This document shows, in pieces, positions 37,205 through 64,000 of a stretch of 64,000 nucleotides of DNA. The notes below the pieces were generated by a model. The model had not been told where the DNA came from and did not search any database. It worked only from the letters and a program-made list of their open reading frames with translations. The position numbers were made by a program, and so were the translations under genes. Every line of letters starts with the position of its first letter. Within the stretch, counting starts at the first letter, position 1. Origin of the DNA: Sphaerochaeta sp. (GTDB lineage Bacteria > Spirochaetota > Spirochaetia > Sphaerochaetales > Sphaerochaetaceae); contig JAKVPA010000003.1 of the NCBI GenBank assembly GCA_022482495.1, forward strand, positions 208,905-272,904, in the 5' to 3' direction.

Positions 37205-37277
37205 GCCGCTTTAGCTCAGTTGGTAGAGCAAAGGACTGAAAATCCTTGTGTCCCCAGTTCGATTCTGGGAGGCGGCA
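37205..37277 (+). tRNA. tRNA-Phe (anticodon GAA)
   Basis: GCCGCTT TA GCTCAGTTGGTAGAGC, anticodon arm AAGGA CTGAAAA TCCTT and T-arm CCCAG TTCGATT CTGGG. No CCA is encoded. Confidence 0.85.
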
Positions 37278-37284
37278 ATTCCAC

Positions 37285-37314
37285 AACCCCTTACTTCATA
37301 TGAGGTAAGGGGTT
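37285..37314 (+). terminator. 30-bp near-perfect palindrome immediately 3' of tRNA-Phe (terminator or att-like hairpin)
   Basis: aaccccttac t tcatatga g gtaaggggtt, then acgtatttct. Confidence 0.4.
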
Positions 37315-37685
37315 ACGTATTTCTAGGGTACAAGAGACACTCAGAACTTCGCATCGTAACAACCAAAACCTTGGCATTCACCCATAACGGTTGGTACATT
37401 CCAAACAGCAAGAGGAATCTTGCAGGGGGATCGAGCTCCGGCAACCTGAGGTTCGGGGCCTTTTTAGGAAGCCCTGCAAGACGATACAACAACGGGTCAG
37501 TCTTCTTCGGCCAAGAAGTTTGAAACTTGATAATCCCCACAAAAACAGAGCGATGCAATACTTCCTGAGAATGGGAAAGAAGCAATCCGGTAATACCGAT
37601 TTGCAACATTCTCCTTCCCGTTCTCAGGAATCAGGAAGCGGTATACACTCGCCTACACAGACAAAAAGCGTGTCCCTTGATTTTA

Positions 37686-37722
37686 TCTGAAGATTTTACG
37701 CACATGTGCACAAATTCTTCAG
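37686..37722. promoter_or_regulatory. Composite palindromic operator-like site about 110 bp upstream of the COG1373 ATPase gene
   Basis: tctgaagatttt acgcacatgtgcaca aaattcttcaga-like inverted repeat around the perfect palindrome gcacatgtgc. Confidence 0.3.
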
Positions 37723-37831
37723 TCTCTTCCTTCTCCTCCCTGTTTCACCCGACGTTCATGGTCCTCTTCTCTCTATGTTCTGTAATCAATAACTGCAAAC
37801 ACTTGCAAAAATTTATTACAGAAAGGTAGTC

Positions 37832-39019
37832 ATGAACCAGGAAATCAAACGGGATCGATATCTCGACAAATGCATCAAGAGGATGGGAAACGGCCTCATC
37901 AAGGTTATCACAGGTATTCGACGATGTGGCAAATCGTATCTCCTCAACCCTCTTTTCAAAACCCATCTTCTCTCTTCCGGAGTCAAGGAAGACCATATCA
38001 TTGAAATGGCGTTTGACACGAGAGAAAATGTACGATTCCAAAACCCTGACCTGTTTGACGACTGGGTGAATCATCAGATCAAGGATGCGGGAACCTATTA
38101 CCTTCTTCTTGATGAGATTCAGCTCCTTGGTAACTTTGAAGCCGTACTGAACGGATTCCTCAGAAAGAACAATATCGATGTTTACGTGACGGGAAGCAAT
38201 GCCAGATTCCTTTCTGAAGATGTCATCACGGAATTCAGAGGACGTGGCGATGAAATCCATATGGCTCCCCTGAGTTTCTCTGAGTTCATGTCGGTCTTCC
38301 CGGGAGACAAGCGGGACGGCCTGAACGCATATATGCGGTATGGAGGTCTTCCACGTGTGGTTCTCGCCCCGGATGAAGAGCAGAAAATGCTCATGCTTGA
38401 AGCGTTGCTTCGTGAAACCTACCTGACAGATATCATCAACAGGCATCACATCAAGAAACCGGGCGAGATGGCGGAACTTCTTGATATCCTAAGCTTAAAC
38501 ATCGGTAGCCTCACCAACCCATTGACGATCGTCCACACGTTCCATTCCGTGAAAAAATCGACCATCACCCCCGCCACCATCTCACGGTACCTTGGATACC
38601 TTTCCGATTCCTATTTGATCGAGTTTGCCAAGCGGTACGACGTAAAAGGGAAAAAGTACATTGAGACTCCTAAGAAGTATTATTTCTCAGATCTTGGACT
38701 CCGTAATTCCCGAATTCATTTTCGCCAGATCGAACCTTCCCACAGCATGGAGAACATCATCTATAATGAACGGAGAACACGTGGTTTCAACGTTGACGTC
38801 GGCGTGGTGCCAGTATCCGGGAAAAACCGTTCCGGTTCCATGGTACGGAAATAGCTTGAAGTTGACTTTGTCGCCAACAAAGGTTCAAGAAGGTATTCCA
38901 TCCAGTCTGCGTATCTGATGCCGGATGAAGACAAACGGAGACAGGAAATCCGACCGTTTCTCTCCATCGATGATTCCTTCAAAAAAAACATCATCACCCA
39001 GGACACCGCAGGCAAATGA
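37832..39019 (+). pseudogene. COG1373/DUF4143-family AAA ATPase interrupted by an in-frame TAG at 38852..38854
   Basis: Walker A GIRRCGKSYLLN and Walker B YLLLDEIQ. After the TAG the same frame continues LEVDFVANKGSRRYSIQSAYLM...ITQDTAGK, which is the conserved C-terminus of this family. Confidence 0.65.
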
Positions 39020-61323: not shown

Positions 61324-61426
61324 TTTTTCTCCTTTGGTGTTTCTTAAATTATCGGAAAGAAAACATTACTTATCAATACGCTTTCAACTAATAGTAAGCC
61401 TTATTTACAATCTTCTTTCATGTTTT

Positions 61427-61708
61427 TTAAATCAACCTTGCAAATAGCAATATTACAGTGAGATGCAGTGGATAGTAAGCATAGAAAACTAATCCGGGAA
61501 TCCTACCTTTTCCTTGTTCTTCCGCTTGGATTCTCAGTGCATAGATAACCGCAGAAGCCAGAAATACGGATATTGTCCCTGCAATATATTCCACTTGAGT
61601 TTCACCGTAGAGGATAGTTCTGAGAATGAAATATGAAGCAGGTATCAGAATTAGCTTTAGTTCCCTGTGAGAAATTCTACTTACAATCTGCCTTTTTCGG
61701 GATTTCAT
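61427..61708 (-). pseudogene. C-terminal fragment of a TraX-family membrane-protein gene, displaced by the IS insertion
   Basis: Hydrophobic C-terminus ...VFYAYYPLHLTVILLFARLI. The N-terminal part of the same family lies at 63413..63900. Confidence 0.4.
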
Positions 61709-63243
61709 GAGGAACCGTGATATTGAACAGTTTGTAGGCCTCGTTCGCCTTTCTCGTCGCCTCCATGGTGAGGATGTTGTTGTCGAACACCTTGCACTTC
61801 TGGTTCCTGAGTGCGATCAGGATTCCCTGCGGTGTCATGGCCGTTTTCCTCACCTTCTCCTGGATGTGCTTCACGATGACCGATGCCGCGAAGGAAAGCA
61901 GGAGATGCCCCCTGAAGGTCTCTTCCGACTGCACGCGCAGCGGGAGCATCTTCGTGTTGTTCTTGCAGAGGTCGAACACCTGCTCGATCTGCTGCCTCAT
62001 GTAGTAGATGGAAAGGATGTCCTCCTTCCTTATCGGCCTTGACGATATGAGCATGAAGATCCCCTGGCTCCCCATGCCGTCATGCACATCCTCGGGGGAG
62101 AGTTTCCTGCTTTTCGCCGATGCGAAGAGCTTTCCCGATTCCAGCGACTTCATCAGCATGTCCCTGCAGAGGTACACGTATGCGGCATGGGCGTCTTCCG
62201 ACGGACGCTCGTCCGGCCCCAGGATCCTGTCCTCCGCGTTGGGGTTCAGGACTTCCACCTTCACCCTCTTGACGTAGACGTAGCGGGAGTTGTATTCGAC
62301 GAGGTTCCCTTTCTCCTCCAGGTCATGGGACTCTCGTTCCGCCACCGTCTTGTATATCCTCCTGTTCTCCTTGAGCCTGGAGACGAACGACACCTTGCCG
62401 TCGTAAAGCTCCCTCATGTTCGTATCGGTGAGGTATCCGGCGTCCAGCGTCGCGAACTTTGTGTCTATGTTGTATGACTTCAGCTCCCTTATCGTCTTGG
62501 TGAGCGTGGAGACGTCGACCACGTTCCCGGGGACATAGCGGAAGAAGAGGGGGAGGTTCGTCCTTCTTCTGCACGACGTAGATGAGCCGCACCTCGTTGC
62601 TGATCTCCCCGTTGTGGTTGCTCACCGCGGTGAGGGGGAAATGGATGCTGTTGGGCAGCCCCGTGCTGTCGATGAGCACGTCCTCGCCATCCTTTCCTGC
62701 GTTCGCGACCAGCGGAAGATATTCCTTGAAGAATTCCCTGTACGACCATTCGTCGCCGATGGCGGAGAGGATGTCGCTTATCCTCTGGCTCTCGAGGTTG
62801 GCCTTCGGGAAAAGGATCCTCGCATAACTCCCGTCGTACCAGTCCTGGGCGTAACAGTTGGCGGACTGGCTGAGGATGTAGAACATGAGCATCGCACGGA
62901 CGGAGTCGTTGTTGCCGTAGTCCATGGCGTCGGTCGCCTTGTAGAGTCCGAAACCGTCGATGACCTTGTCGATGAGGTAGGCGTCCCCGAAATCGAGTAT
63001 CAGGCTCTCCCTGTGGTTCCGCCTCCTCACGCTCGGGATGTCGGCCGGGTCCGGCCTCCCGTATTCCCCCGTGGCCAGGTCATAGGTGAAGACGCCGCGC
63101 TCCCTGCTCTGGTAGATGTGCTTCTTCTCGTCGAGCACACGGCCCAGGCTCTTCTGTGTCGTCCTCACTTTTCCGCCAACCCGTTCGGAGACGCACAGCT
63201 TCGCATATCTGATCCCGCCCTTCACGTCATAGCCTATGTACAT
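61677..63243 (-). pseudogene. DDE transposase (IS4/IS1634-like) with one frame change. It marks an IS element inserted into the traX-like gene.
   Basis: Two overlapping ORFs (62323..63243 and 61677..62522) read as one transposase. The shift lies at a C-run (cctccccctcttc, about 62530-62560). GC content is host-like. Confidence 0.55.
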
Positions 63244-63412
63244 GGCGATCCTCCTGTAATTACATATTTAATATTCTAATTACATGATATGCTATATCCT
63301 TCCGGAGTGCAAGGGAAAAGGAGGGGGAAAGGGCAAATACCGACGAAAAAACCAACTCTGGCGGTTGTGTGCAAAGTTGGTCGTCTCTGTTTTGGTTGGT
63401 AGTTAGAATTTC

Positions 63413-63900
63413 TTACAGGGAATTATAGATTAGTGAGAGTTGTTCTTTCTGCTTCTTCTGGAGTACGTAGAAGATGATTGTAAACACCGGAGCAATAATG
63501 CTCCAGTCACAGATCAGTGATATCGGGAAGAACAGAGCTAAAGTGGCGAGCGCTGTCAGAAGTCCTTTTCTATCAAGTAAATAGATTATAGTTAAGCTTG
63601 CTAACAAAGTAAAAAGGACGTTCAATTGAAGTCCGAACAGCAGATAGAAAGAAATTTCTGATATCAAAGCCCAGAGGAGAAGTCTCTCGGCATACTTCAG
63701 GACTGATCTGGTATAGCGTAGCCCTTGGGTAATGAAGAAGCACATTATCACGATTGTGAAATTCCCGAAGAACTGACATATGTTGTAAATATCACTTCCT
63801 TCAGGAAGACTGTTGATGCATGATCTGCAGTCATTGTTATGATTGCAAGAATCTTCAGGAAGTCTCTTGCTTTGTTGTACTGTGGTTTATCAATACTCAT
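63413..63900 (-). pseudogene. N-terminal part of the TraX-family membrane-protein gene, with an internal frame change near 63760-63780
   Basis: The reverse strand from 63900 reads MSIDKPQYNKARDFLKILAIITMTADHASTVFLKEVIFTTY, which matches the TraX N-terminal LK..A..M..DH motif. It then shifts frame into the ORF 63413..63751 (FFITQGLRYTRSVLKYAERLLLWAL...). Confidence 0.45.
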
Positions 63901-64000
63901 ACGTAGTAATCACCATAGATGGCGACGCAGCTGTCCCAGTAGTCTTTGCCGAAGTATCTGATAATCCTTTTCTTGATATATCTGCTTCTGCTTCTTGTTC

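Follow-up and report, generated by a model that had tools for sequence, protein, structure and literature searches.

A BREX–Gabija defence island in Sphaerochaeta, probably parted from its integrase and from tRNA-Phe at an IS1595-family element

A survey of the Escherichia coli pan-genome described defence islands that are integrase-only or of the integrative mobilizable element (IME) type, with 18 of the 41 hotspots located at tRNA loci (PMC10121019). BREX and Gabija systems are frequent cargo of such islands, whose route between cells is unclear (PMC10121019). Here, we analyze a locus harboring both systems in a 64,000-nucleotide stretch of a Sphaerochaeta sp. assembly (GCA_022482495.1, contig JAKVPA010000003.1, positions 208,905 to 272,904 of the forward strand; hereafter the window, numbered from its first letter). 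We conclude with good confidence that the window carries the right-hand, integrase-less part of a tRNA-Phe-specific island, joined to the chromosome 4.67 kb downstream of tRNA-Phe via an IS1595-family insertion sequence (IS) that lacks a target-site duplication (TSD). An original prediction, made from the window alone, had placed the start of a horizontally acquired, low-GC defence island at tRNA-Phe (position 37205); the acquisition is borne out by related genomes that lack the insert, but the island does not start there.

The foreign block and its left boundary

The defence block, which starts at 43164 and extends past 64000, was acquired horizontally, as shown by its foreign composition and its absence from related genomes. 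Using 2-kb windows over host DNA (1-33000; 56.7% GC, SD 1.9%) as the composition reference, we find 43.5% GC in the BREX operon (43686-58033; GC z -7, tetranucleotide distance z +13) and 34.5% GC in the Gabija pair (58055-61323; GC z -12, tetranucleotide distance z +21), and, at third codon positions, GC is 0.73-0.83 for host genes but only 0.42-0.56 for BREX genes and 0.25-0.28 for those of Gabija. This sliding-window analysis of GC and tetranucleotides, together with codon usage, reveals a real shift, far from uniform composition, and locates it at the IS1595-family element, where a sharp change had been predicted; the hand counts given with that prediction (37/60 G+C at 9001-9060 and 26/60 at 45001-45060) are exact. 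GC is low through both BREX and Gabija, as expected, but the block is not uniform, and the 9 GC points by which Gabija lies below its neighbor suggest that the Gabija module is of separate origin from the adjacent BREX operon. The IS1595-family element has 49.5% GC, the remnants of a traX-like gene 38%, and an IS1634-family element inside that gene 55%. To the left of the block, 37278-38900 has 46% GC and 39100-41948 a host-like 59% (z +1.2). The features from tRNA-Phe to the beginning of the block are as follows.

37205-37277, + strand: tRNA-Phe(GAA) (ARAGORN), intact, with native DNA directly after it; the cognate attachment site of the element family described below
37278-41948: native segment A, chromosomal and outside the island, with the tRNA terminator hairpin and genes
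37832-38854, + strand: AAA_14/DUF4143 ATPase, matching PADLOC candidate defence family PDC-S01 (1.8e-96)
39181-40275, - strand: S58 peptidase, host-like in composition
40483-41478, - strand: SPFH/Band_7 protein, host-like in composition
within 37278-41948: small open reading frame (ORF), part of the native segment
41949-43163, - strand: IS1595-family IS, 1215 bp long and ending in perfect inverted repeats of 25 nt; it marks the foreign block's left edge
42006-43004, - strand: IS1595-family transposase (NCBIfam IS1595, 58 bits; IS1/IS1595 Zn domain, 40 bits)
43164-43485: AT-rich leader of the foreign block, holding a remnant of a 337-aa helix-turn-helix (HTH)/excisionase-like gene

Judged by sequence comparison, the segment 37278-41948 is resident chromosome and not island cargo, because eight related contigs (L131 and L136-L142, from 7-8 independent samples) carry it at 97.5-99.6% identity with no insert and run from it straight into host genes (HTH_3, HSP20, glycosidase, and others; 57-61% GC). 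tRNA-Phe lies ahead of the segment wherever a contig extends that far (L131 and L136), the junction between the two is as in the window in L011, L131, L132, L136, and L143-L147, and the IS1595 target, CTTCTTATATTAAA abutting AGATTATC, is unbroken in all eight insert-free contigs. The empty site is present in these close relatives, relative to which everything from 41949 rightward is an insertion; the insertion is thus real, but its boundary is not the tRNA, from which the foreign block is separated by 4.67 kb of native DNA.

The IS1595-family element itself, predicted at 41946-43166, is confirmed, with its bounds refined to 41949-43163 by the inverted repeats. Its transposase exceeds the cut-off for the IS1/IS1595 Zn domain (28 bits), and its DDE domain gives the best match but falls under the cut-off (75 bits for NCBIfam IS1595); features of the family are the 25-nt inverted repeats, the N-terminal Zn domain, and the 8-bp duplication seen in 10 other copies. 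These 10 copies, on other contigs and with an identical transposase (loci L100-L109), all show clean matching 8-bp TSDs, whereas the window copy has none: its left flank, ATATTAAA, is an ordinary native intergenic target, and its right flank, AAATACAA, is island DNA. An IS1595 copy without a TSD and with one native and one island flank marks a recombination or cointegration event and not a simple insertion. The element is very abundant, with an identical transposase in 190 blocks of the collection, flanks ranging from 43 to 58% GC, and several copies in the same metagenome-assembled genome (MAG).

An abundant repeat may also mislead an assembler, and a contig that leaves IS1595 wrongly could join a naive chromosome to an island that another strain carries in the canonical place at tRNA-Phe. 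The sequences are population mixtures, the IS is a repeat of 1.2 kb present in many copies, two other long contigs break ~230 nt inside it, and the long contig L011 (270 kb) lacks 410 bp (41918-42326) over its left end, that is, at this junction. Still, the same assemblies traversed 10 of 10 other IS1595 copies with matching duplications, and two assemblies that differ in their native-segment alleles agree on the connections, so that we regard a chimera as improbable.

On its right, the IS abuts the leader, in which ~10 codons near 43290-43325 on the minus strand (translation KYQWVIAFTF) match the N-terminus of a 341-aa protein of L017; the 337-aa gene precedes BREX in related elements, and homology to L010 and L012-L019 starts at 43265.

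A tRNA-Phe-cognate element family

No integrase or direct repeat of the tRNA 3' end had been noticed in the window, and our searches agree: Pfam on all sizeable ORFs and tblastn with three integrases detect no integrase in the window, nor is there a second copy of the tRNA-Phe 3' end in it (allowing ≤3 mismatches in 25 nt or ≤2 in 15 nt). That the far end may lie beyond 64 kb, one of two alternatives offered at the time, is the one that stands. The window runs out in the following gene.

63897-64000, - strand: 3' end of an M48-family peptidase gene, which runs off the window

Related contigs (L004, L111, L112, L114-L117, and L156-L165) continue the right-hand block (block C, from the traX-like gene to the nitroreductases) with the M48 peptidase, ParA, a 120-aa gene, and nitroreductase genes, at 38-46% GC. 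The block ends ~4.4 kb past the window (~window-equivalent 68.4 kb) at an attR core, CCTGGAGGCGGCA, which is the partial copy of the tRNA-Phe 3' end sought beyond the window: it matches TCTGGGAGGCGGCA at 10 exact bases and at 13/15 overall. The core is followed by three unrelated flanks across contigs. The first, found in L111, L112, and four or more further samples, consists of this species' own terminator hairpin and native segment; the second is a different hairpin and an M20 peptidase gene in a 61% GC host (L153), and the third a T-run and LacI/AtuA genes in a ~48% GC host (L159).

At the left end, in L010 and L012, the same core stands immediately ahead of a gene split by IS21; its two pieces correspond at 100% identity to an intact 395-aa member of the integrase cluster (residues 1-283 and 284-395). 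This protein is a tyrosine recombinase with SAM-like and catalytic-domain matches and an RHSF...Y motif. The gene order of the family is thus core CCTGGAGGCGGCA, the 395-aa integrase, a few small genes, the conserved 238-, 300-, and 337-aa genes, and the 67-aa HTH gene on the left, followed by BREX with an embedded AlbA_2/HATPase_c_4 gene, Gabija, the traX-like gene, M48, ParA, the 120-aa gene, the nitroreductases, and core CCTGGAGGCGGCA on the right. Because the core is found at both ends and the integrase beside the left one, the sequence of its ends evidently makes the family one of integrase-type islands whose attachment core, GGAGGCGGCA, is cognate to tRNA-Phe.

Everything to the left of the 337-aa gene, including the integrase, is missing from the window block, in which the 238-, 300-, and 337-aa genes could not be traced beyond the ~10 codons of the last beside the IS, and tRNA-Phe is intact and looks unoccupied. 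The lack of an integrase is therefore explained by the absence of the element's left part and not by great age of the island. An anciently fixed island, the other alternative offered, is contradicted by the 100% identity of the block to copies in other assemblies. Integration at tRNA-Phe as a hotspot is correct for the lineage, which is tied to this tRNA by the core and integrase of its relatives, but the block is not inserted at the tRNA here.

The right-hand core also bears on the simplest alternative, a single ~31-kb island in situ at tRNA-Phe, running from 37278 to ~68.4 kb with the AAA_14, S58, and SPFH genes as left cargo and the partial repeat as attR. L111 and L112 do join the right-hand block, the core, and the native segment, so that the tRNA 3' end and the partial repeat could bracket the block, and the AAA_14 gene beside the tRNA is low in GC and matches a candidate defence family. 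This reading is nonetheless very hard to sustain: in the eight insert-free contigs, the supposed left cargo is resident and leads into host genes, the S58 and SPFH genes are host-like in composition, the left flank of IS1595 is an ordinary native target site, and in other hosts attR is followed by unrelated DNA and the left end of the element is the integrase, not the native segment.

Defence cargo, the traX-like region, and neighboring variation

The cargo of the block begins with the BREX operon and its upstream gene, followed by Gabija on the opposite strand.

43486-43689, + strand: 67-aa HTH protein (MerR/HTH_17-like), overlapping the brxA start; the gene call is conserved in all related loci
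43686-58033, + strand: type 1 BREX operon (Pfam; full-length PADLOC matches)
43686-44270, + strand: brxA (PADLOC BrxA, 1.8e-35)
44267-44869, + strand: brxB (PADLOC BrxB, 2.3e-44)
44869-48342, + strand: brxC (PADLOC BrxC, 1073 bits)
48344-51901, + strand: pglX (PADLOC PglX, 1300 bits)
51909-53432, + strand: AlbA_2/HATPase_c_4 gene, an extra gene in the pglX-pglZ gap
53434-55938, + strand: pglZ (PADLOC PglZ, 713 bits)
55949-58033, + strand: brxL (PADLOC BrxL, 1070 bits)
58055-61323, - strand: Gabija pair, gajA and gajB with a 13-nt overlap
59572-61323, - strand: gajA, an ABC-type ATPase with TOPRIM (PADLOC GajA, 3.8e-107; Pfam AAA_15/AAA_21/OLD-like_TOPRIM)
58055-59584, - strand: gajB, a UvrD-like helicase (PADLOC GajB, 8.8e-80; Pfam UvrD)

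In BREX, N6-adenine methylation of a short asymmetric motif by PglX marks host DNA as self, and PglX together with BrxA, BrxB, BrxC, PglZ, and BrxL blocks the replication of unmethylated phage DNA. Gabija is a GajA-GajB complex in which the TOPRIM nuclease of GajA is kept inactive by nucleotides; GajA nicks DNA once phage infection depletes nucleotides or DNA ends appear. The window has a complete type 1 BREX, with all six signature genes full length, in canonical order, and on one strand, and an adjacent, overlapping gajA (ATPase and TOPRIM) and gajB (UvrD-like helicase), and both cassettes look intact as read from their sequences. The 67-aa protein, the L012 orthologue of which has weak Pfam HTH_17/MerR matches, is likely the regulator of the BREX operon.

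BREX and Gabija themselves are already known systems, and the NCBI pipeline already names PglX and BrxL in a Sphaerochaeta sp. MAG (proteins MCH3907653-675) with proteins identical to those of the window. Several assemblies have the BREX-Gabija pair at 100% identity, and others have copies that are 88-97% identical; the window block is 100% identical to L011 and L002 over ~20 kb, and identical GajA, BrxA, and BrxL are found in many samples. A megablast of 43164-64000 against plasmids returned a single 69-bp brxC match.

Two features of the operon vary among its copies or add to it. The AlbA_2 (Schlafen-like)/HATPase_c_4 gene separates pglX from pglZ in all related BREX copies, among them that of L153 (88% identical), where it also has an HTH_11 domain; it has no NCBIfam match and only weak PADLOC matches, to pAgo-associated proteins. 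Within pglX, nucleotide homology to other BREX copies, elsewhere 91-99% identical, is lost over 50228-50840, with an identity of ~91% to the left of this stretch and ~99.4% to its right; the stretch looks like a swapped target-recognition module and recombination breakpoint. pglX is in two ORFs in L010 and L013.

Beyond Gabija lies the traX-like region.

61427-63900, - strand: traX-like pseudogene (C-terminal part, 61427-61654; N-terminal part, 63429-63900; Pfam TraX, 5e-11 on a fragment)
61655-63428, - strand: IS1634-family element, 1774 bp, with inverted repeats and a 5-bp duplication, ATTAG (61650-61654 and 63429-63433)

The traX-like gene is doubly disrupted, by the IS1634-family insertion and by a frameshift near 63750-63780, toward its 5' end, which is common to L004 and absent from L005. 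At the empty site of L004 and L005, the sequence is unbroken at the point of insertion and the overlap is exactly 5 bp, and an intact 232-aa traX-like gene occupies the empty site in L005 and L153. The family assignment of the IS rests on the intact 521-aa copy of the transposase in L002 (IS1634, NF033559: 124 bits, cut-off 100); that of the window is frameshifted by one extra base at 62563. The high-GC DDE transposase predicted at 61677-63243 is thus real and part of this element. The block had been described as ending in a disrupted traX-like gene, and the gene is indeed disrupted, but the window ends in the M48-peptidase gene. L111 and L112 have the IS1634-family element at the exact site seen in the window. 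They also contain three tandem copies of a second IS1595-like element, ~65% identical to that of the window (L111 10002-13622; L112 10003-13505), inserted in the IS1634-family element at window-equivalent 62594-62598.

A conjugative origin, to which the TraX match had been taken to hint, is unsupported. With 30-35 bits, the traX-like protein stays far below the NCBIfam TraX/TrbP cut-offs (149-206), and neither 37278-64000 nor the right-hand continuation was found to contain relaxase, coupling protein, or type IV secretion genes; an ArdC gene and a NikA-like gene are seen only in one related left arm, L017. By any criterion tested, the island is not an integrative and conjugative element (ICE).

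Several observations concern the resident DNA around tRNA-Phe. The AAA_14/DUF4143 gene is low in GC (47%) yet resident in all strains, directly after the tRNA, and has been struck by independent ISL3 insertions in L131 and in L144-L146; it may be the remnant of an older insertion at the same tRNA. In the SPFH gene, strain single-nucleotide polymorphisms (SNPs) cluster at 40822-41417 in three mosaic haplotypes, and their concentration there, next to 3.5 kb that are nearly invariant, suggests local recombination. A 105-bp indel (41813-41917), with ACCTT repeats at its bounds, is missing from L131, L138, and L139. SNPs at 37280 and 37284, just after the core, were considered as att-related and dropped, as L131 has both after an intact tRNA; they nonetheless correlate with junction type. 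Upstream of tRNA-Phe, a strain-variable polysaccharide-biosynthesis stretch (33700-36700; 49% GC) differs from L011 by six single-base indels that fragment a 617-aa Polysacc_synt_2 gene and a 430-aa gene; the broken genes are either pseudogenes or assembly errors.

No integrase was found beside tRNA-Arg (14038-14111). A scan of representative genomes with the S58 peptidase for insert-free relatives yielded no close relative, with best matches only 61% identical (Oscillospiraceae, Faecalibacterium); an exact look-up of the window SPFH protein returned no record; and the oxidoreductase encoded among the host genes that follow the native segment was matched only on 3-kb contigs, which do not extend to the junction.

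History of the block and comparison with described systems

The sharing of the exact IS1634-family insertion in traX with L111 and L112, in which the island lies beside a tRNA remnant, makes those copies and that of the window recent relatives within this species. The island would first have integrated site-specifically at tRNA-Phe in this species, as we infer from the junctions of the right-hand block, the core, and the native segment. A recombination in which IS1595 copies took part would then have placed its integrase-less part at the present site, most readily by a double crossover or through an IS-generated circle, IS1595 serving at one end and the native segment at the other. The IS1634-family hit on traX would predate this relocation and hence be common to both arrangements, and the present block would no longer be able to excise by its own integrase.

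A topology that we favor, if tentatively, follows from this history: tRNA-Phe, a first copy of the native segment, IS1595, BREX, Gabija, the right-hand block, the core, a second copy of the native segment, and host genes. It would arise if a fragment, or a circle generated by the IS, came from a strain with the canonical tRNA-Phe integration and recombined homologously with the chromosome, using IS1595 at its left end and the native segment or host genes at its right. All contigs that reach the end of the right-hand block (~6 samples) pass from the core into the native segment, and these samples include ones whose main chromosome contig has the native segment followed by IS1595. In one sample, L001 and L112 abut at window-equivalent 62594-62598, linking BREX, Gabija, the right-hand block, the core, and the native segment. 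Moreover, the allele at the core/native-segment junction (ATCCCAAAA) differs from that at the tRNA/native-segment junction (ATTCCACAA), as expected of two distinct copies. On the other hand, no single contig covers both copies, the long contigs end 4.4 kb short of the predicted second one, and the same data are compatible with two coexisting strains.

The TSD-less IS with a native left flank and an element right flank is at the same time the classic signature of a cointegrate, and an excised circular island could have fused into the chromosome through IS1595, whether as a replicative cointegrate or through recombination of one IS with another. In that case, one would expect at the far end, in order, the right-hand block, the attP core, the integrase and the genes after it, the truncated 337-aa gene, a second IS1595, a duplicated ATATTAAA, and host genes. 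The high activity of IS1595, with an identical transposase in 190 collection blocks, fits such a fusion, but no contig was seen to run from the right-hand block and core into the integrase and no junction of IS1595, ATATTAAA, and host genes was found; both are weak negatives, the latter since the scanned collection appears to lack these samples, and we consider the fusion unlikely. An inversion by intramolecular transposition from the canonical arrangement is ruled out, as it cannot yield the intact tRNA/native-segment junction.

Several points weigh against our preferred reading of a relocated, integrase-less part of a tRNA-Phe-specific island. The far end of the block is unseen, as both the window and the one long contig homologous to it break off within the M48 gene at an identical position. 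A single IS1595 copy lies within reach at the block, where a composite or cointegrate would have two bracketing copies with reciprocal flanks. A pattern scan of metagenome contigs for reciprocal IS1595 junctions gave 0 matches; a search of the same collection with the M48 peptidase found one 1.6-kb contig only, and the scan is uninformative because the collection is evidently without the relevant samples. All sequences are metagenome assemblies, in which a chimeric join across the multi-copy IS1595 is possible. The 395-aa integrase scores 26.4 bits, under the Pfam cut-off of 27.1, and among 10 of 13 contigs listed, none in this species has tRNA-Phe followed directly by the integrase (attL). 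Finally, the left junction of L010 and L012 lies in a HAD-like hydrolase gene downstream of tRNA-Val (~560-640), not in a tRNA, and the right junction of L160 breaks inside the core, after CCTGG (~3440-3470); site choice is therefore not strictly tRNA-Phe, which suggests that the element uses secondary attachment sites.

A bolder view would make BREX-Gabija part of an IS1595-generated or homology-moved translocatable unit that spreads without site-specific recombination, with the parent island moving at near 100% identity between hosts that range from ~48% to 61% GC and the AlbA_2/HATPase_c_4 protein acting as a BREX accessory or sensor; we hold this combination to be doubtful. What the locus offers is a junction-by-junction example of an IS uncoupling a defence island from its own integrase and att site while the island stays in place and intact, and of one BREX-Gabija island circulating almost unchanged among several spirochaete-like hosts in engineered anaerobic communities. 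It also cautions annotators that a low-GC block near a tRNA need not be integrated at that tRNA and that a TraX-family match is not evidence of conjugation.

Like the islands of E. coli (PMC10121019), this family has a tyrosine integrase, few or no other mobility genes, a presence in some strains only, and a link to a tRNA gene, where such islands often lie. It differs from them in its host, the spirochaete Sphaerochaeta of bioreactor-type metagenomes, in a gene content that adds ParA, an M48 peptidase, a traX-like gene, and nitroreductases, and, for the present copy, in being without the integrase end, off the tRNA, and behind an IS element. Compared with standard type 1 BREX, every related copy has the AlbA_2/HATPase_c_4 gene between pglX and pglZ, the upstream 67-aa HTH gene replaces the WYL-type BrxR, and 50228-50840 of pglX is swapped between otherwise near-identical copies. 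Gabija resembles the known two-gene cassette with overlapping ORFs, and nothing notable differs apart from its low GC. The boundary recalls IS26/IS1-style cointegrates, translocatable units, and homology-facilitated island transfer in that a multi-copy, active IS without a target duplication stands between resident and foreign DNA; unlike IS26/IS1-style cointegrates, only one IS1595 copy is visible here and the second junction is unobserved. The locus is a defence island of an ordinary kind, the history of which is documented unusually well.

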